A stretch of 64,000 nucleotides of DNA from a bacterium. Its GTDB lineage: Bacteria; UBA8248. Location of the stretch: the NCBI GenBank assembly GCA_965202625.1, contig CBDBBI010000010.1:1056001-1120000 (forward strand). Direction: 5' to 3'. The notes under the pieces were generated by a model that saw nothing but the letters and a program-made list of their open reading frames with translations, was not told the DNA's origin and ran no database searches. Every line of letters begins with the position of its first letter. The stretch's first letter is position 1. Positions 2 through 7,247 of the stretch are shown one piece after another. A program made the translations under genes and the position numbers.

Positions 2-244
2 TGGGCACTCAACCCCTACGTAGGGGGAGGGGTTGGAGTGATGCATCTCGACGTGCCACGTGGTACCGACAGCGGCTTCTCCTGGCAACTCGGTGCGGGC
101 GCAATTTTTCCCATAGGCAATAATCTGGCACTTGACGCCAGCTACCGGTTTCTGAACACCGCCTACGAACCTGAAATTTTCTCTATTGTGTATGAGGATA
201 TCGAGGCACACGCATTCTTGCTGGGCATCAAGCTCACGTTCTAG
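2..244 (+). CDS. Outer-membrane beta-barrel protein, C-terminal part (5'-partial)
   Basis: Frame open from the window edge: NPYVGGGVG...FSWQLGAG...LDASYRF...LGIKLTF; alternating beta-strand pattern, terminal Phe. Confidence 0.8.
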   Translation, partial: WALNPYVGGGVGVMHLDVPRGTDSGFSWQLGAGAIFPIGNNLALDASYRFLNTAYEPEIFSIVYEDIEAHAFLLGIKLTF

Positions 245-390: not shown

Positions 391-1152
391 TTAAGAGGTG
401 AGGAGAGATTTCTCCTGAATGGTTCTTGATGGGTTGATTCCAAACGCTTGAGGCATTTCAGTCCACGTTCTGCCATCCAGCGTTCGACCCGTCTTTTTCT
501 TGAATACGCCGCCCCATTGCTTGAAGAAAAAAGGCGTGCCGCTGCCCACGCAATTATCCCGAATCTCTCGCGCCCAGTCCGGCTCCATGGGCCTTGCGCC
601 CGGACCGCTTTCGCCGCCGACGATGACCCAGTCAATGCCGTCCAGATCCAGACTCGGCAAGGGTTCAAGCAGCGGCTCAAGAGAGAGAAACTTCGTTCGG
701 GCACCCGTTTGCCGGAGCAGGCGCGCCCGGTTCAGAAAATCCGCAGACTCAATGCTCGTCCCCAGCCAGATGTTCGGCGTCCAGCGAAGCCGCCGGCTCC
801 ACCGGACAGCGCGTCCCGGCCGCTTCGTGAGCACCTGAAACGTGTGCTGGGTCGCGCGGTTCATCACCCCGAACACGGCCTCAAGGAAGTCCAGCGGCAC
901 CGCTCGGTGAAACAGATCGCTCATAGAGTTCACGAAAACAAGGCGCGGCTTGCGCCACTTCAGAGGCTCTTCCAGAATGGATGGGTGGGTTCTGAGCGAA
1001 AAGCCGTCCGCGTACTTGCGGGTCCCCATCCCCTGGAGCCGCCTCGACATCCGCGCAGCGTAACAATGCTTGCACCCGGGGCTGATCTTCGTGCAACCGG
1101 TAGTCGGGTTCCAGGTGATTTCCGTCCACTCTATGCCGGAAACTTTAGGCAT
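391..1152 (-). CDS. DUF5131 / phage Gp37-Gp68 family three-Cys (radical-SAM-like) protein
   Basis: IEWTEITWNPTTGCTKISPGCKHCYA, FVNSMSDLFH, FQVLTKR, SLEPLL, WVIVGGESG, FFFKQWGG; start at ATG 1152. Confidence 0.92.
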   Translation of the reverse strand: MPKVSGIEWTEITWNPTTGCTKISPGCKHCYAARMSRRLQGMGTRKYADGFSLRTHPSILEEPLKWRKPRLVFVNSMSDLFHRAVPLDFLEAVFGVMNRATQHTFQVLTKRPGRAVRWSRRLRWTPNIWLGTSIESADFLNRARLLRQTGARTKFLSLEPLLEPLPSLDLDGIDWVIVGGESGPGARPMEPDWAREIRDNCVGSGTPFFFKQWGGVFKKKTGRTLDGRTWTEMPQAFGINPSRTIQEKSLLTS

Positions 1153-1154
1153 GG

Positions 1155-1895
1155 CTAAATGTGACCCAGAATGTGGCCTGCAATCCGAGTAGCTGGAGCA
1201 ATTCCCCTGGGGTGGCCTACGCAAAACATAAATTCAAATAGCGCCGAATTCTTGGAGTTTTTAAGAGTTCGGGATTTTTCGAGAAACCTGTCTCTAAATA
1301 AGCACTTAAGATTTCTTTTGTATATGGAGGTCAGGCCCCCGACGCCAGAGTCTCTCTCATAATGAAGACCTCCAAATAGATCAGTGTTTTCCTGATACAG
1401 GCCTCTCCATCTCTCATCACCGAATACTTTTGTGAGTCGCTCAGCCCACTTTGGCTCAACTTCCTCGGGCATTCTTGATTTCGGCAACATCCTAGCAACA
1501 GCGGACGTAGGGAAGAGAATCCAGGTATCGAGCACCTTAAGGTTGGCTATCTTTTCAATAGTCGCCCATGCAACTTCCGTGGCGAAGCGCCGCTTCGCCG
1601 CCGCGTCCGCCGCGCAAAACCCGCTGTCGTGGGCCTCCGAGGTTGCCACAATGTGTTCAATGTCCGTCTGGTGCCTGCTGGAAAACGTCCGCCCGGTGTA
1701 TGGCCCATACGTCCGGCCCCCAAGACCGGCAACGATGCGGGCCTCAAGAGATTGCGAATACGGATAGTCGCGCCGCTTGTCGTAGGGTGCGCACCGGTGC
1801 TCGGGTGCGACCACGAGGCCGCGCCAGGTGTCAGCGGCCCACATGGTTGCGGGAGTGAGCGCAACGAGAGCGAAAACGAATATACACAAAATCAC
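1155..1895 (-). pseudogene. In-frame chimera: signal peptide plus N-half of a DUF1524-like HNH nuclease (about 1576-1895) fused to the C-half of TcmP three-Cys-motif partner protein (1155-about 1586)
   Basis: N-part YGPYTG...DIEHIVATSEAHDSG...RRFAT; C-part EVAWATIEKIA...DTWILFP...LKNSKNSALFEFMFCVGH; adjacent to DUF5131; GC drops at the junction. Confidence 0.7.
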
Positions 1896-1925
1896 CCTTC
1901 ATCCACCCCCTTGGTGCCGACCGCC

Positions 1926-2246
1926 TTAACGGTTTCCCTCTTTGCATCGAACGCGGTAATAGATTCGGCTGCCCGCAGCGCCGAGGTTATATTCCCGAAT
2001 CACTTTCCGCTCGAAAATCTCGTATCCACCGGGGCACAAGTCGTTGTCAGTGAGGTAGAGCTTGAGCCTCGATAGTCTGTTGGATTCAGCGGAGGAGCTG
2101 TCATGCGGAGTGAGCGGGCCAGCTACCGCCTCGTACTGAAACGTCCCGTCGGACAATGGCCTGAATCTGGTATCGAATATAGTGTCGTGCGCAGAACAAC
2201 CCATTAATGCCAGGAACGCAAAAACGGCCAGGCCTTTCGCAAACAT
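1926..2246 (-). CDS. Small lipoprotein, variant 1 (106 aa)
   Basis: MFAKGLAVFAFLALMG-C lipobox, strong RBS GGAGG, two further conserved Cys; paralog of 2413-2736. Confidence 0.8.
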   Translation of the reverse strand: MFAKGLAVFAFLALMGCSAHDTIFDTRFRPLSDGTFQYEAVAGPLTPHDSSSAESNRLSRLKLYLTDNDLCPGGYEIFERKVIREYNLGAAGSRIYYRVRCKEGNR

Positions 2247-2412
2247 CGGCTCCTCCTCCCTCAAAAAGTCCGCGCCATCCAGCACACCTCTCCCAAAACC
2301 TCCGCACCGCGCGGAGGCGGGATGGGCTCCCACGCCGGATGATCGCTCTCCAGAATCCACCGCCCCTCCACCCACACCGCGCGCGGCCACAGCGAACAGG
2401 CTGCAGACCGCC

Positions 2413-2736
2413 TTAACGGTTTCCCTCTTTGCATCGAACGCGGTAATGGATTCTGTGGGCCAAAGCGTCGGAGCCATATTCCCGAATCGCTATCCGCTCG
2501 AAAACCTCGTATCCACCGGGGCACAAGTCGTTGTCAGTGAGGTAGAGCTTGAGCCTCAATAGTCTGTTGGCTTCAGCGGAGGCACTCTTCGGCGGATAGA
2601 ACGGGCCAGCTACCGCCTCGTACTCAAACGTCCCGTCGGACAATGGCTTGAATCTGTGATCGTATCCAGTGATGCGCGCAGTAGTACAACCCATTAATGC
2701 CAGGAACGCAAAAACGGCCAGGCCTTTCGCAAACAT
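2413..2736 (-). CDS. Small lipoprotein, variant 2
   Basis: Same signal peptide and lipobox; starts just after the repressor stop codon. Confidence 0.8.
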   Translation of the reverse strand: MFAKGLAVFAFLALMGCTTARITGYDHRFKPLSDGTFEYEAVAGPFYPPKSASAEANRLLRLKLYLTDNDLCPGGYEVFERIAIREYGSDALAHRIHYRVRCKEGNR

Positions 2737-2750
2737 CATCTCCTCCTCCC

Positions 2751-3527
2751 TCAAAAAGTCCGCGCCATCCAGCACACCTCTCCCAACACCTCCGCCCCGC
2801 GCGGAGGCGGGATGGGCTCCCACGCCGGATGATCGCTCTCCAGAATCCACCGCCCGTCCACCCACACCGCGCGCTTGACCAGCAAGCCATCCTCGCCGCG
2901 CACCACGAATATCCGTCCGCTGTGCAGGTGCTTTTTTTTCATGTCAATGAGAATGGAGCAACCCGCCGGCAGCGTCGGCTCCATGGATTCGCCCGCCACG
3001 CGGATGATGCGGCACTGGGCGGCCTCCAGCCCTTGCTCCCTCAGCCACTCCGCGCGAAACGCCAGACGTCCCGCCACCGTCTCGCTGTCCGCCTCCGCAC
3101 CGCCTCCCGCCGCCGCGTCCACCTCCACGATTTCCACGTGACGGAAATGGAAAGCGTCCGTATTTCCGGCGGCCTCCGATTCTGCCGCGTCGCGCAATTT
3201 GTCCAGGGTACCGGCCGCATCGCGCAAGCGGGAGAGCTCCGCATCGAAAGCCTCCTCCAGCATTCGCTTCGCCGAGCCCTCCTGGAGTGCCGCCGCCCCT
3301 GATGCATCGGGCACCCCTGATGCACCGGGTGGGGCGACGAGAGGAAATTCAATGCCCAGAGCTTCGCAAATCTGGGCGGCGCGCCCGATAGAAGGTTGCT
3401 GTCCGTCCAGGATTCCCTGGAAACTTCGCACAGGAATCCCCGCACGCATTGCCGCCGCGCGTACGGACTCACCATTCCTTGCGAGGTGATCACGAACATC
3501 TTTCACAAACCGTTCCCTTACTCCCAT
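2751..3527 (-). CDS. Phage CI-type repressor, HTH plus S24 peptidase
   Basis: N-terminal HTH (SVRAAAMRAGIPVRSFQGIL...PSIGRAAQICEALG), AAAG cleavage site, VAGESMEP (Ser) and LLVKR (Lys). Confidence 0.9.
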   Translation of the reverse strand: MGVRERFVKDVRDHLARNGESVRAAAMRAGIPVRSFQGILDGQQPSIGRAAQICEALGIEFPLVAPPGASGVPDASGAAALQEGSAKRMLEEAFDAELSRLRDAAGTLDKLRDAAESEAAGNTDAFHFRHVEIVEVDAAAGGGAEADSETVAGRLAFRAEWLREQGLEAAQCRIIRVAGESMEPTLPAGCSILIDMKKKHLHSGRIFVVRGEDGLLVKRAVWVDGRWILESDHPAWEPIPPPRGAEVLGEVCWMARTF

Positions 3528-3624
3528 GTGGCAATGTATAGCATATTGTGCCCCCAAATTGCCATTGGCATTATAATGCAAATATGGGCTTGACATCTTG
3601 GCGTAATAAAGCCATATTGGCCTT
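3528..3624. promoter_or_regulatory. Divergent lysis/lysogeny switch: sigma70 promoter TTGACA(3590)-17bp-CATATT(3613) and three operator-like repeats
   Basis: AT-rich; repeats TGGCAATGTATAGCATATTG (3529), TGGCATTATAATGCAAATATG (3566), TGGCGTAATAAAGCCATATTG (3599). Confidence 0.65.
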
Positions 3625-3873
3625 ATGACGCCAAACCAGATCATCCACCTTATAGACGTCATGGCCGAGGCGACCGCCCGAAGCCCGCACACGCTCGCCC
3701 GCTACGCTGCCGGCTCCGGAGATTTCTACGCGCGCCTGAAGGTTGGACACGACATCACGACCCGCCGCGCCGCGCGCGTCGTTCAATGGTTCTCCGATCA
3801 ATGGCCCTCCGACCTGGAGTGGCCGTCGGACGTTCCCCGCCCTGTGCCGAAAGCGAAGGAGAGTGCCGCGTGA
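3625..3873 (+). CDS. Cro/Ner-like small phage regulator
   Basis: 82 aa divergent from the repressor; TLARYAAGSGDFYARLKVGHDITTRRA...WFSDQWPSDLEWPSDVPRP resembles alphaproteobacterial phage regulators. Confidence 0.65.
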   Translation: MTPNQIIHLIDVMAEATARSPHTLARYAAGSGDFYARLKVGHDITTRRAARVVQWFSDQWPSDLEWPSDVPRPVPKAKESAA

Positions 3874-4628
3874 GCGGGTGCGATCTGCGGGTGATAACGG
3901 AGGAATCCCCCCCCGTTTCGCCGGCGAAACAGGCACACGAAGCGCCGCGGCCCCTCTTTCATGAAGGGCTTGGGCGGGATCGCTGGGCGGAGATCGGGCG
4001 CGATCTTTCCCACTGGGCGGAGAACACGCAATGGGAAATGGGAGAATGGGCTCTGTTTGGGGAGGCGTCTTTTGGCGAGAGGACGCTGCGGGAGGTGGCG
4101 TCCGGTCTGAAAATCAGCGCGGGCAAACTGTCCAACTGCCGACTGGTCGCCAAGAATTTCCCCGCGTTTCGCCGGCGAAACGCCTTGAGTTTTTCTCACC
4201 ATCTCGAAGTGGCGCGCCTGCCGCAAGCGGAGGGCGACGAAATTCTCGCCCGCGCCGAGGCGGATGGATGGACGCGAGAGCAGATTCGGAAGGAAGCGCG
4301 CGAAGCGCGGGCGGCGGTGCTGGCGTGCCTGGTGCGCGAGAACGAGGCGCTTCGCGCGGAGAATGCGCGGCTCAAAACCACGCCGGCGGCGGCGAAGGAT
4401 GCGGCGCGCGACCTGGAGAGACGCGCGAAGGCCGCCGCCCGAAAGGTGAGCGCGGCGTTTGCGGACCTCGCGCGGGTACTGGGCGAGGCGGGTGCATCGG
4501 CGGAAATCACAGGTTTGCACGGCAACGCGCGCGCGGCACTCGACGCGCGCCTGAAACGCATCGTGTGCTCGGCTGGAAGGGATGCGGCCGGCGTGCAGAT
4601 GCGCTTCACTTTCGGGGCGGGCGAATGA
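3870..4628 (+). CDS. LmbU-like HTH DNA-binding protein with C-terminal coiled coil
   Basis: QWEMGEWALFGEASFG...LSNCRLVAKNF...RRRNALSFSHHLEVARLP...AEADGWTREQIR; GTG start overlaps the upstream stop, RBS AAGGAGAG. Confidence 0.7.
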   Translation: MSGCDLRVITEESPPVSPAKQAHEAPRPLFHEGLGRDRWAEIGRDLSHWAENTQWEMGEWALFGEASFGERTLREVASGLKISAGKLSNCRLVAKNFPAFRRRNALSFSHHLEVARLPQAEGDEILARAEADGWTREQIRKEAREARAAVLACLVRENEALRAENARLKTTPAAAKDAARDLERRAKAAARKVSAAFADLARVLGEAGASAEITGLHGNARAALDARLKRIVCSAGRDAAGVQMRFTFGAGE

Positions 4629-5284
4629 ATCCCCACGCCCGTGAAACCGCCCAGCAACCCTCTTTCATCGCCCTGGAAACGCCCGAAAAACTCCCTTGCA
4701 ACGACCTGGAAACCGCCTGGAACGCCGCCACGGACGCCCAGAAAGAGCGCGCCGTCAAGCGGCTGCGTGCGGTCGAGCGTTCCGAGGCTTTGGCGGCGGA
4801 GGGGATAGTGCGCGCGGAGGCGGACGGAATAGCGGCACTTGAATGCGGCGCGTCCAAATCCGCCGTCGCCACCTGGCGGCGTCGCGCACGAGGTGCGGGG
4901 CGGGGAGATAGACTGCGCACGCTTCTTGACGCACCGGGGCGCGGACGGCCGCGTGCAGAATGGACGGGCACGGCGGCGGAGACGCTCTGGACGCTGTGGC
5001 GCACGGACTGGCTCCGAGAGGAAGCACCGGATGCGGCGGCGGCACATCGGCGGGTGGAGGCGGTCGCCCAGGCGCGGGGCTGGGAATGTCCGCCCCTCCA
5101 GGCGTTCACCCGCAGGGTGCGGCGCGAGGTTTCCCGCCGCGAAGTCGTACGCGCGCGCAAGGGTGCCCTCGCCGCCATGAACACCTCGCCCCACCAGACG
5201 CGAAGCGTGGAGGCGGGATGGGCTCCCACGCCGGATGATCGCTCTCCAGAATCCACCGCCCCTCCACCCACACCGCGCGCTTGA
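4625..5284 (+). pseudogene. Mu-type transposase A, end-binding domains only; truncated at about 5209 before the DDE core
   Basis: DWLREEAP...HRRVEAVAQARGWECPP...VVRARKG...PHQTRSV matches the MuA I-beta/I-gamma pattern; then reads into a repressor-gene fragment. Confidence 0.75.
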
Positions 5285-5297
5285 CCAGCAAGCCATC
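5209..5297. repeat. Third copy (89 bp) of the repressor 3' region, direct repeat of 2803-2891
   Basis: One mismatch to 2803-2891; that base matches the copy at 2313-2384. Confidence 0.95.
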
Positions 5298-5351
5298 TCG
5301 GTAGAGGCACACGTCGGCTTTTGTTCTTGTTCAATAGTCGAAGTCCCTCCT

Positions 5352-7247
5352 CTACTTCCCCGGATAGCCCAGGCCGGCGAGGGTCTCGGCGATCTCGGGC
5401 AGGATGGCCGGGTCGTCAATGGTGGCAGGTGCCTTGTATTCCTCGCCGTCGGCGATGCGCGACATCGTTCCCCGTAAAATTTTGCCCGAGCGCGTCTTGG
5501 GCAGGCGCTTCACCACTGCCGCCTGACGGAATGCGGCCACGGCGCCGATCTGGCGGCGCACGAGCTGCACCACCTCGCCGACGACCTCCGCATCCTCCCT
5601 CTCAACGCCCGACGTCAAGACCAGAAAACCGAGGGGAAGCTGGCCCTTGAGCTGATCCTTCACTCCGATGACGGCACACTCCGCCACGTCGGGATGCGAG
5701 GTCAACACCTCCTCCATCGCGCCCGTGGAGAGCCTGTGGCCCGCCACGTTGATGATGTCGTCCGTCCTCGACATCACATAGACGTAGCCCTCCTCGTCCA
5801 CGTAGCCGGCATCGCCCGTTTTGTAGAAGCCCGGATATTCGCTCAGATAGGAATCGACAAAACGCGCGTCCGCGTTCCAGAGGGTGGGGAGACAACCGGG
5901 CGGCAGGGGCAGTTTGACGCACAGCGCGCCCATCTCGCCCGCACCCAGTGCGCGGCACTCGCTGTCGAGAACCCGAAAATCGTAGCCGGGAACGGGCTTC
6001 GTGGGGGAGCCGTATTTGACGGGCAGATGCTCGATTCCGATGGAGTTCGCCAGCATCGGCCAGCCGCTCTCCGTCTGCCAATAGTGGTCGATGACGGGAA
6101 CCCCCAGCTTATCCTCCGCCCACTGCACCGTGTCCGGGTCGGATCGCTCCCCCGCCAGAAAAAGGGTGCGGAAACAGCCGAGGTCGTAATTTCGCATGAG
6201 TTCAGCGTCCGGATCATCGCGCTTGATAGCGCGAAACGCCGTGGGCGCCGTGAACAAAACCTTCACCCCATGCTCGGAGATGACGCGCCAGAAAGCGCCT
6301 GCGTCGGGCGTGCCCACGGGCTTGCCCTCAAACAGGATGGTCGCGCAGCCGTGGAGCAGCGGCGCATACACGATGTAGGAATGCCCCACCACCCAGCCTA
6401 CGTCGGACGCCGCCCAGAACACCTCGCCCGGCGCCACGCCATACACGTTTCGCATCGACCACTTGAGCGCCACCATGTGGCCGCCGTTGTCTCGAACCAC
6501 CCCCTTGGGCTGTCCCGTCGTGCCCGAGGTGTAGAGGATATAAAGGGGGTCCGTGGCGGCGACGGGAACACAGGCCGCAGGCATCGCGCCCCGCAGCGCA
6601 TCGCCCCATTCGACGTCGCGGCCCTCGATGAGCTCCGCCTCCGCCTGGGCGCGCTGCAGGATGACGCACTTCTCCGGCTTCACGCTCGAGAGGTTGATCG
6701 CCTCATCGAGCAGGGGCTTGTAGGCGATGACGCCCGAGGGTTCCACTCCGCACGAGGCGGATATCATGAGTTTCGGCTTTGCGTCCTCGATCCGCGCCGC
6801 CAGCTCGTTCGGTGCGAACCCGCCGAAGACGACCGAGTGCACCGCGCCGATGCGCGCGCAGGCGAGCATGGAGATCGCCGCCTCGGGTACCATCGGCATG
6901 TAGATGATGACGCAGTCGCCCTTCTCCACCCCCAGGGATTTGAGCGCGCCCGCGAAATGCGCCACCTCGCGCAGCAACTCCCCATAGGTGAACTTTCGGG
7001 CAGGCGCACCCGTGATGGGGGTGTCGTATATCAGGGCGAGTTGATCCGCGCGTCCCGCCTCGACGTGACGATCCAGTGCGTTGTAGCAGGTGTTGACCTC
7101 GCCTCCTGCGAACCAGCGATAGAAAGGAGGGCGGGAATCATCCAGCACCCTCTCCCATCTCTTGTGCCAGTGCACGTCCTCCGCCGCCTCCGCCCAGAAC
7201 GCCTCCGCGTCCAAGAGAGAGCGGGCGTGAACCTCTGCGTAGCCCAT
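5352..7247 (-). CDS. prpE: Propionyl-CoA synthetase
   Basis: YILYTSGTTGQPKG, SDVGWVVGHSYIVYAPL, LFLAGE, LPKTRSGKILR. Confidence 0.88.
   Translation of the reverse strand: MGYAEVHARSLLDAEAFWAEAAEDVHWHKRWERVLDDSRPPFYRWFAGGEVNTCYNALDRHVEAGRADQLALIYDTPITGAPARKFTYGELLREVAHFAGALKSLGVEKGDCVIIYMPMVPEAAISMLACARIGAVHSVVFGGFAPNELAARIEDAKPKLMISASCGVEPSGVIAYKPLLDEAINLSSVKPEKCVILQRAQAEAELIEGRDVEWGDALRGAMPAACVPVAATDPLYILYTSGTTGQPKGVVRDNGGHMVALKWSMRNVYGVAPGEVFWAASDVGWVVGHSYIVYAPLLHGCATILFEGKPVGTPDAGAFWRVISEHGVKVLFTAPTAFRAIKRDDPDAELMRNYDLGCFRTLFLAGERSDPDTVQWAEDKLGVPVIDHYWQTESGWPMLANSIGIEHLPVKYGSPTKPVPGYDFRVLDSECRALGAGEMGALCVKLPLPPGCLPTLWNADARFVDSYLSEYPGFYKTGDAGYVDEEGYVYVMSRTDDIINVAGHRLSTGAMEEVLTSHPDVAECAVIGVKDQLKGQLPLGFLVLTSGVEREDAEVVGEVVQLVRRQIGAVAAFRQAAVVKRLPKTRSGKILRGTMSRIADGEEYKAPATIDDPAILPEIAETLAGLGYPGK

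Follow-up and report, generated by a model that had tools for sequence, protein, structure and literature searches.

What process leaves two adjacent genes with one and the same signal peptide and with mature products set apart almost only by amino-acid replacements, and what might such products do? The question is raised by lipA and lipB, two lipoprotein genes that lie in direct tandem downstream of a phage-type repressor gene in a 64,000-nucleotide stretch of a bacterial genome (GTDB lineage Bacteria; UBA8248), which covers forward-strand positions 1,056,001 to 1,120,000 of contig CBDBBI010000010.1 in GenBank assembly GCA_965202625.1 and is called the window below. The two genes are intact tandem paralogues encoding a small Sec/lipobox lipoprotein with a predicted β-β-α-β-β fold and two conserved cysteines, and their copies have diverged since duplication almost only by amino-acid replacement, with signal peptide, helix core and cysteine framework kept constant. 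The cause of this divergence is positive diversifying selection on ordinary point mutations, without a diversity-generating retroelement (DGR). The products are best explained as domesticated phage "moron" lipoproteins, amplified and diversified, that probably act in superinfection exclusion. We put the probability of this whole chain at about 0.5; the combination of real paralogues, positive selection, no DGR and a phage-derived family is held with very high confidence.

Codon alignment of lipA with lipB returns 37 substitutions, distributed 17/17/3 over codon positions 1, 2 and 3, together with one codon indel, an additional ACT following the lipobox cysteine in lipB. The two genes differ at 27 codons, 25 of them non-synonymous and 2 synonymous, and codons 1-17, which form the signal peptide, are the same in both. 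The original prediction had counted by hand about 37 substitutions, one codon indel, about 2 synonymous changes and about 3 third-position changes, which proves exact on the codon alignment, and its account of an identical signal peptide followed by divergence in three patches is confirmed as quoted. With one third of changes expected at third positions, the probability of finding 3 or fewer of 37 there is 3.5e-4. Nei-Gojobori counts of 2.5 synonymous differences (Sd) over 62.8 sites and 34.5 non-synonymous differences (Nd) over 204.2 sites give a ratio of non-synonymous to synonymous divergence (dN/dS) of 4.68 (Fisher p = 0.003). The units are 97% identical over the 192 nt of signal peptide and upstream spacer and 87% identical over 280 nt with the mature part. 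Coding in another reading frame of the cassettes is ruled out, the lipoprotein frame being the only one open in both copies and the other five holding 1-6 stops.

The bias extends to every copy found. A blastn search (word 9) with both units against the genome yields five cassettes, fragments of the 93-nt repeat D3 (Table 1), one 39-nt piece at a contig end, and nothing more. Three of the cassettes, spaced 412-414 bp apart, lie on contig C8, an alternate haplotype of the locus whose flanks match those of the window at 99.2-99.8%, with 79 differences in 19,311 nt. Among the five copies dN/dS exceeds 1 in 10/10 pairs, with a range of 1.28 to infinity, which bears out the earlier claim of strong diversifying selection. 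Two within-array pairs provide independent counts of replacement and silent differences, namely lipA/lipB at 34.5/2.5 and c8_2/c8_1 at 22/0 (p = 0.0013), the latter among the cleanest arms-race signatures to be had from a pairwise comparison. Variable sites in the mature part number 76 and fall 33/30/13 by codon position, a third-position share (13/76) well below expectation (p = 1.3e-3). Transitions and transversions stand at 26/35 in the two within-array pairs vs 772/472 between haplotype contigs genome-wide (p = 0.003), a transversion excess that is expected if radical replacements are favoured. Neutral yardsticks are low, as seen both in the nearly identical spacer and signal peptide and in the haplotype flanks.

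It is highly improbable that this pattern reflects relaxed constraint on, or decay of, the duplicated copies, or that it came about through faulty assembly or the mixing of strains. The surrounding prophage is decayed and the assembly does contain alternate-haplotype contigs; neutral decay, however, would lead to dN/dS near 1 accompanied by stops and frameshifts, vs the observed values of 3 to infinity and 5/5 intact copies in which signal peptide, cysteine residues and helix core are conserved and C17, E54, Y97, R57, L61, C71, G74, R80 and C101 are unchanged throughout. Strain mixing, which the original prediction had named as a way for its claim to fail, is dismissed because both copies stand 487-490 bp apart on one 2.9-Mb contig and recur in an independent library, an RNA library of 2018 whose contigs span 1931-2235 and 2418-2688 with 0-2 differing letters per piece.

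A second rival holds that a DGR or another mutator rewrites the three patches, and the codon pattern itself recalls such a system. Many codons change at positions 1 and 2 with position 3 fixed, mostly NNC, as AAC template codons predict; transversions equal or outnumber transitions in 10/10 pairs; and DGR variable proteins, such as the Bordetella phage tail fibre, likewise take most of their replacements from the first two codon positions while the scaffold stays fixed. The lipoprotein genes differ from these proteins in every other respect compared. The reverse transcriptase profile PF00078 (RVT_1) has 0 matches in the 99.69%-complete genome, the same search being positive in 3/14 control genomes, and the blastn search that recovered the five cassettes and the contig-end piece returns no further cassette-like copy, hence no template repeat. 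Across the five copies 42 adenines of the mature part are invariant, 17 of them within the patches; A is present in any copy at only 39/76 variable sites; and the variation covers about 240 nt in three separate blocks parted by A-containing constant DNA. Contigs of the 2018 library return both alleles with 0-2 differing letters, so the cassettes are stable alleles and not a churning population. A DGR is accordingly rejected, the targeted mutagenesis offered in the original prediction as an alternative to selection finds no support, and a mutator of any kind is close to refuted. A DGR-like pattern, with positions 1 and 2 changing in NNC codons, can thus arise without a DGR.

Neither lipA nor lipB has a match in Pfam, PHROGs, NCBIfam or PADLOC, and 2/86 family members touch an NCBIfam lipoprotein model (E 0.008). 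A word-indexed protein search returned only the three proteins of the window's own genome, and an exhaustive phmmer search over 1.84 billion representatives retrieved 232 proteins at E <= 1e-3 (members here being clusters at 50% identity) and 27 at E <= 1e-10, nearly all of about 100 aa, the best foreign match being 46% identical. Looked-up members are all named "hypothetical protein", and the nearest protein-atlas clusters are unnamed hypothetical proteins as well. One match, P0106 (1066 aa, 5 stretches), is a low-complexity repeat protein and was treated as spurious. In an 86-sequence family alignment C17, E54 and Y97 are invariant, the lipobox Cys17 being kept in 86/86 members, and P30, R57, L61, C71, G74, R80 and C101 are near-invariant. 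AlphaFold2 with the family alignment models lipA at a predicted local distance difference test score (pLDDT) of 87.7, with strands at 27-30 and 35-42, a helix at 51-67 and strands at 75-87 and 90-101.

Variable mature residues among the five copies amount to 43/89, divided over strands (20/37), helices (9/20) and coil (14/32), and positions that vary between paralogues prefer columns that vary in the family (Mann-Whitney p = 2e-4). The proposal of three variable loops on a disulfide-held scaffold stands in so far as C71 and C101 are near-invariant and fit a disulfide; the loops are only roughly right, because variable residues fall in strands, helix and coil alike. Going by the predicted topology, the N-terminal segment, the β2-helix loop and the β3-β4 hairpin would gather at one end of the sheet and C71-C101 at the other, an arrangement that holds if β2-α-β3 is a crossover and both hairpins are antiparallel.

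The nearest relatives of lipA are found at phage-type loci. Structural modules house 7/8 of the phage-type loci, one of which (L029, an opposite-strand copy) is called a structural module by a tape-measure tblastn match alone; the eighth copy (L025) stands at a contig end near an anti-repressor. In two prophage regions of Dongia deserti and one IMG/VR contig (L012, L016, L013) the gene order is minor tail protein, NlpC/P60 gpK-like protein, lipoprotein, gpJ, and in another IMG/VR contig (L014) the lipoprotein gene again falls between K and J, there in reverse orientation. Identity of lipA to these relatives is 43% for L012 and L013, 37% for L016 and 35% for L014. A further IMG/VR locus, L024, has two tandem copies at 4663-5279 (+), about 40% identical to each other, which adjoin the tape-measure gene and run against the direction of the tail genes; in L030 the corresponding site is occupied by a single copy (4941-5243, +), 64% identical, with neighbouring genes 71-87% identical between the two phages. 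Tandem amplification of the lipoprotein family is therefore not unique to the window, and a gene that is inserted on the opposite strand and changes in copy number is to be seen as an accessory moron and not as a component of the tail. The family is sporadic in bacterial genomes. It occurs in 2/51 genomes of the window's phylum, in 7/401 sampled genomes of the class of Dongia deserti and, at E <= 1e-8, in 0/400 other sampled Pseudomonadota genomes; a metagenome scan with P0035 gave no match.

The same loci bear on a reading in which the products are periplasmic immunity or inhibitor proteins, forming either an orphan immunity array against envelope-acting toxins or a set of proteins that inhibit the NlpC/P60 tail peptidase brought by an infecting phage. 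Tandem diverged arrays of small periplasm-facing lipoproteins resemble immunity-gene arrays, and a homologue adjoins an NlpC/P60 gene in four loci (L012, L016, L013, L014). However, no toxin gene lies beside the array in any of the three haplotypes, and no NlpC/P60 gene neighbours the homologue in the examined parts of L024, L029 and L030, which leaves this reading unlikely. An animal host as the interacting party is also unlikely, if a shade less so. In that case the proteins would be putatively surface-exposed and their variation would serve evasion of host recognition, and it is true that parts of the locus are present in contigs from X3 and X5, both of which carry the label sponge metagenome, and that RNA-library contigs span both open reading frames (ORFs). 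Tandem positively selected lipoprotein families are, moreover, typical of host-interacting bacteria in the account given in the relevant part of PMC11389397. Against this, phage tail modules are the setting of the nearest relatives, some of them in prophages of Dongia deserti, which is not recorded as a sponge organism, and the family reaches only two genomes in the window's phylum, as given above.

Superinfection exclusion is favoured because four observations concur: the tail-hub position of the relatives, the post-repressor position here, the neighbouring defence island, and the replacement-driven divergence. Exclusion had been put forward in the original prediction as one candidate role, and the location of the nearest relatives in phage tail and structural modules strengthens it; the function itself we infer. 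Divergence so nearly confined to replacements bears the stamp of an arms race, most probably one against phages. In the mechanism proposed, the lipoprotein gene would be of phage origin, a moron inserted in tail modules by the central tail fibre gene in the nearest relatives, and would here have come to lie in the immunity region of a decayed Mu-like prophage, where it would be read together with the repressor. The lipoproteins would be anchored in the envelope, and each variant might bind a different variable partner, either a tail or injection protein of an incoming phage or an outer-membrane receptor, so that superinfection would be blocked. The array would then represent a small germline repertoire of exclusion specificities, its diversity maintained by phage pressure. 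A wider and more tentative proposal is that the unnamed family might be a widespread tail-tip phage moron for exclusion, captured here from a dead prophage and expanded to a strain-variable array that would serve as a heritable anti-phage binding repertoire. If true, this would be a defence-island component working by diversified binders instead of nucleases.

Several observations weigh against an exclusion protein of phage descent. Exclusion activity and binding partner are both argued from analogy, and the window's own copies are adjacent to no tail gene and follow a repressor. A tblastn search against 50,697 phage records and 72,556 plasmids came back empty. Distant members of the family (pairwise E >= 0.004 to lipA) are single chromosomal genes by housekeeping genes at 7 loci, with RNase R/RsmB (RNB), RsmB/NDH-2, a chemoreceptor (MCP), TerC/AMP-binding and an aminotransferase as neighbours, and the one beside the aminotransferase belongs to the window's own taxonomic family; the fold is therefore not phage-only. 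There is no sequence or fold likeness to any solved exclusion lipoprotein, the family profile finding nothing under E 0.2 among PDB sequences and Foldseek with the lipoprotein model finding nothing at E <= 1e-3 in PDB and BFVD; weaker Foldseek rows, ferredoxin-like or S6-permutant with template modelling (TM) scores < 0.5, were not interpreted. Between haplotypes the dS of the cassettes is 0.13-0.16, far over the 0.4% divergence of the flanks, so part of the cassette diversity is old or was imported by recombination. The related phage pair L024/L030 gives a dN/dS of 0.09, a value that is uninformative since dS is saturated, and the excess of replacements is therefore established only for the recent copies in the window's genome; the lipoprotein dN of 0.29 in that pair is nevertheless the highest of six genes compared (the others lying at 0.08-0.22). 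Lastly, the RNA library may contain DNA, and its contigs carry no expression level.

The known class with which the locus invites comparison is that of phage-borne exclusion lipoproteins. The known cases of phage exclusion at the envelope involve a few small lipoproteins, unrelated to one another, from model coliphages and from dairy phages. In small siphoviruses the genes for superinfection-exclusion factors lie beside the J-like hub and receptor-binding gene, according to the passages on exclusion in PMC11990801, and the corresponding part of PMC12685063 describes Llp and Rtp45 as small lipoproteins of the periplasm, binding to the phage receptor in the outer membrane, Rtp45 with a disulfide. 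The siphophage proteins T5 Llp, T1/phi80 Cor and Rtp45 resemble the family in being small phage-encoded envelope lipoproteins, and their J-hub locus is the site of the lipA relatives. The lipobox cysteine is found in lipA and lipB, and the tail-tip position in the relatives but not in the window's copies. lipA and lipB have no detectable sequence or fold similarity to these proteins, with about 89 mature residues in a predicted β-β-α-β-β arrangement, and in the window the genes belong to a prophage immunity region, are tandemly amplified and show dN/dS > 1.

Ltp of Streptococcus thermophilus phage TP-J34 offers the closer parallel in position. As set out in the sections of PMC3952083 concerned, it is a lipoprotein encoded downstream of a CI-type repressor on the same strand and made by the lysogen, and natural Ltp variants differ in the phages they inhibit. 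The likeness to lipA and lipB, a lipoprotein gene downstream of and co-oriented with a CI-like repressor in a lysogeny module, is set against a Gram-positive host, a single-copy gene and an unrelated protein, lipA having no PHROG or Pfam match. For the tandem arrangement, the lipoprotein paralogue clusters treated in Mol Biol Evol 2008 (PMC2568036) are comparable in that the evolving unit, as characterised there, begins within the 3' end of an ORF and continues through the spacer into the 5' part of the next; they concern another protein family in another organism, and the pertinent portion of that paper states no phage link. A limited literature search found no description of the present family, of its tail-module position or of a tandem, positively selected array of exclusion lipoproteins (dN/dS 3 to infinity), which is no proof of absence. 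An unnamed lipoprotein family that turns up again, similarly placed, in phages of other phyla, with a mature product that is small and confidently modelled, provides a convenient object for seeking the partner and the specificity-determining residues, and the cultured Dongia deserti carries prophage copies in which exclusion could be tested.

The array itself arose by duplication of a unit made up of the 3' end of the repressor gene, a ribosome-binding site and the lipoprotein gene (Table 1). Each unit opens with a copy of the last ~40 repressor codons, the stop and a GGGAGGAGGAG ribosome-binding site, and continues into a lipoprotein gene; both genes begin with MFAKGLAVFAFLALMGC, read from the sequence as a signal peptide closing on the lipobox cysteine. 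The repressor stop, TGA, lies 15 nt before the ATG of lipB on the same strand, with the GGGAGGAGGAG Shine-Dalgarno sequence in between, so lipB at least should be co-transcribed with the repressor; an extra in-frame ATG for lipB is available at 2739. A promoter and terminator scan gave counts no higher than the shuffled level, and a weak hairpin 5' of each cassette was not interpreted. In RNA run X6, 5/30 depth bins over 1000-5600 have cover, all 5 inside the two lipoprotein ORFs; the uncovered neighbours there are a contig-level absence and were not counted as evidence.

Table 1. Positions of the lipoprotein array, the prophage remnant and the adjoining genes on the window
Feature	Position	Strand	Description
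lipA	1926-2246	minus	106-aa lipoprotein, lipobox LMGC, Cys17, Cys71, Cys101; promoter-distal cassette
lipB	2413-2736	minus	107-aa lipA paralogue, 76% aa identity; promoter-proximal cassette
Tandem unit 1	1915-2401		487 bp; lipA plus ~165 nt copied from the repressor gene 3' end
Tandem unit 2	2402-2891		490 bp; lipB plus the genuine repressor gene 3' end
D3 repeat copy 1	2309-2401		93 nt, 88%; dead copy of repressor codons ~219-261, 5' of lipA
D3 repeat copy 2	2799-2891		within the repressor 3' end
D3 repeat copy 3	5205-5297		98%; abuts the truncated transposase
CI-like repressor, Peptidase_S24	2751-3536	minus	261 aa from ATG at 3536; PF00717 2.4e-14, phrog_4 4.1e-24
82-aa early-region protein	3625-3873	plus	divergent from the repressor; phrog_7669
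252-aa protein	3870-4628	plus	no family match
Truncated Mu-type transposase	4625-5284	plus	219 aa, HTH_Tnp_Mu_2/I-gamma only; PF09039 5.3e-15, phrog_310 1.4e-19
Chimeric ORF, 246 aa	1155-1895	minus	30 nt downstream of lipA; N-part GmrSD_C/HNH-like with signal peptide, C-part of PDC-M41A
DUF5131 protein, PDC-M41B candidate defence gene	391-1152	minus	Pfam 3.2e-98, PADLOC 7.5e-112

The transposase gene is cut after the I-gamma DNA-binding domain, its last ~25 codons running into D3 copy 3, and an acyl-CoA synthetase gene comes next. The set of full transposase, structural genes and two ends that makes up an intact Mu-like prophage is not present here, and tblastn of the repressor and transposase against the genome finds no second full copy, only short repeat fragments beside the array. 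The element is thus the left-end remnant of a Mu-like prophage. The placement of the lipoprotein genes downstream of a prophage repressor, as first described, holds in that they lie directly downstream of, and co-oriented with, a CI-like repressor of the S24 type; the "prophage" is only a remnant and is absent in the alternate haplotype.

Strains that co-exist with the one represented by the window differ in cassette number (2 or 3) and in spacer length (about 490 or 414 bp). Contig C8 is without the 2406 bp that lie between D3 copies 2 and 3, a contig of run X5 skips the same 2406 bp, and a contig of run X3 has a 75-nt spacer deletion. The 2406-bp segment (2856-5263) comprises the repressor body, the two early genes and the truncated transposase and is bounded by the 93-nt direct repeats, and its presence or absence looks like loss or gain via recombination between them. 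The assembly consists of 10 contigs and has a contamination figure of 4.69%, which is explained by its being the main strain plus variant segments from co-existing strains; of the nine small contigs (10-24 kb), most (C1, C2, C5-C9) repeat stretches of the 2.9-Mb contig as alternate haplotypes, at 95-99.8% identity over kilobases. In L018, whose family member at 1501-1782 has no pairwise match to lipA, the gene adjoins an AMP-binding acyl-CoA synthetase gene, as does the array in haplotype C8 (the corresponding gene of the window being PrpE-like, 5352-7247), and this shared neighbour is probably a coincidence.

On its left the array stands at the edge of a strain-variable defence island, three haplotypes carrying different cargo there. 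The cargo is PDC-M41 in the window, where B is complete and of A just the C-terminal part is present, in a fusion; on C3 it is a Type II restriction enzyme (1.6e-88) with a C5 methyltransferase, and on C8 an SDH-type ClpP-like protease. The variable stretch, which lies between an outer-membrane protein gene and the array, extends over 391-1895 in the window, C8:17086-19087 and C3:90-3760 (L026, L027). Just downstream of the array, a small GmrSD_C/HNH-like protein begins in each of the three haplotypes, at 1155-1895 (-) in the window, C8:18675-19067 (-) and C3:90-452 (+); the motif is found by Pfam at 9e-07 and 5.5e-06 in the forms of 120-130 aa, with an apparent signal peptide, judged by eye, and the HNH-type nuclease beside the array is possibly exported. 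In the window this start is fused at about residue 104 to foreign sequence of lower guanine-cytosine content matching PDC-M41A.

Beyond the variable stretch lies a gene for a small outer-membrane β-barrel, at 2-244 (+) in the window (full gene C10:1055579-1056241) and at C3:3930-4574 (-). The C3 protein is 69% identical to that of the main haplotype, with indels and a dN/dS of 1.47 (Nd 60, Sd 13), so that the barrel is a possible phage receptor, diversified by selection. The idea that the cassettes co-vary with this protein has no simple support: the C8 and C10 proteins are near-equal in their distance from the C3 protein (68.9% and 69.3%) and the flanks are ~99.4-99.8% identical, yet the cassettes differ. 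Apart from the 39-nt cassette end, C3 yielded no member of the lipoprotein family. A gpJ-like central tail fibre gene lies on it at C3:12813-15029, about 12 kb from that cassette end (tblastn E down to 7e-27), and suggests a siphophage-type element near the locus in that strain.

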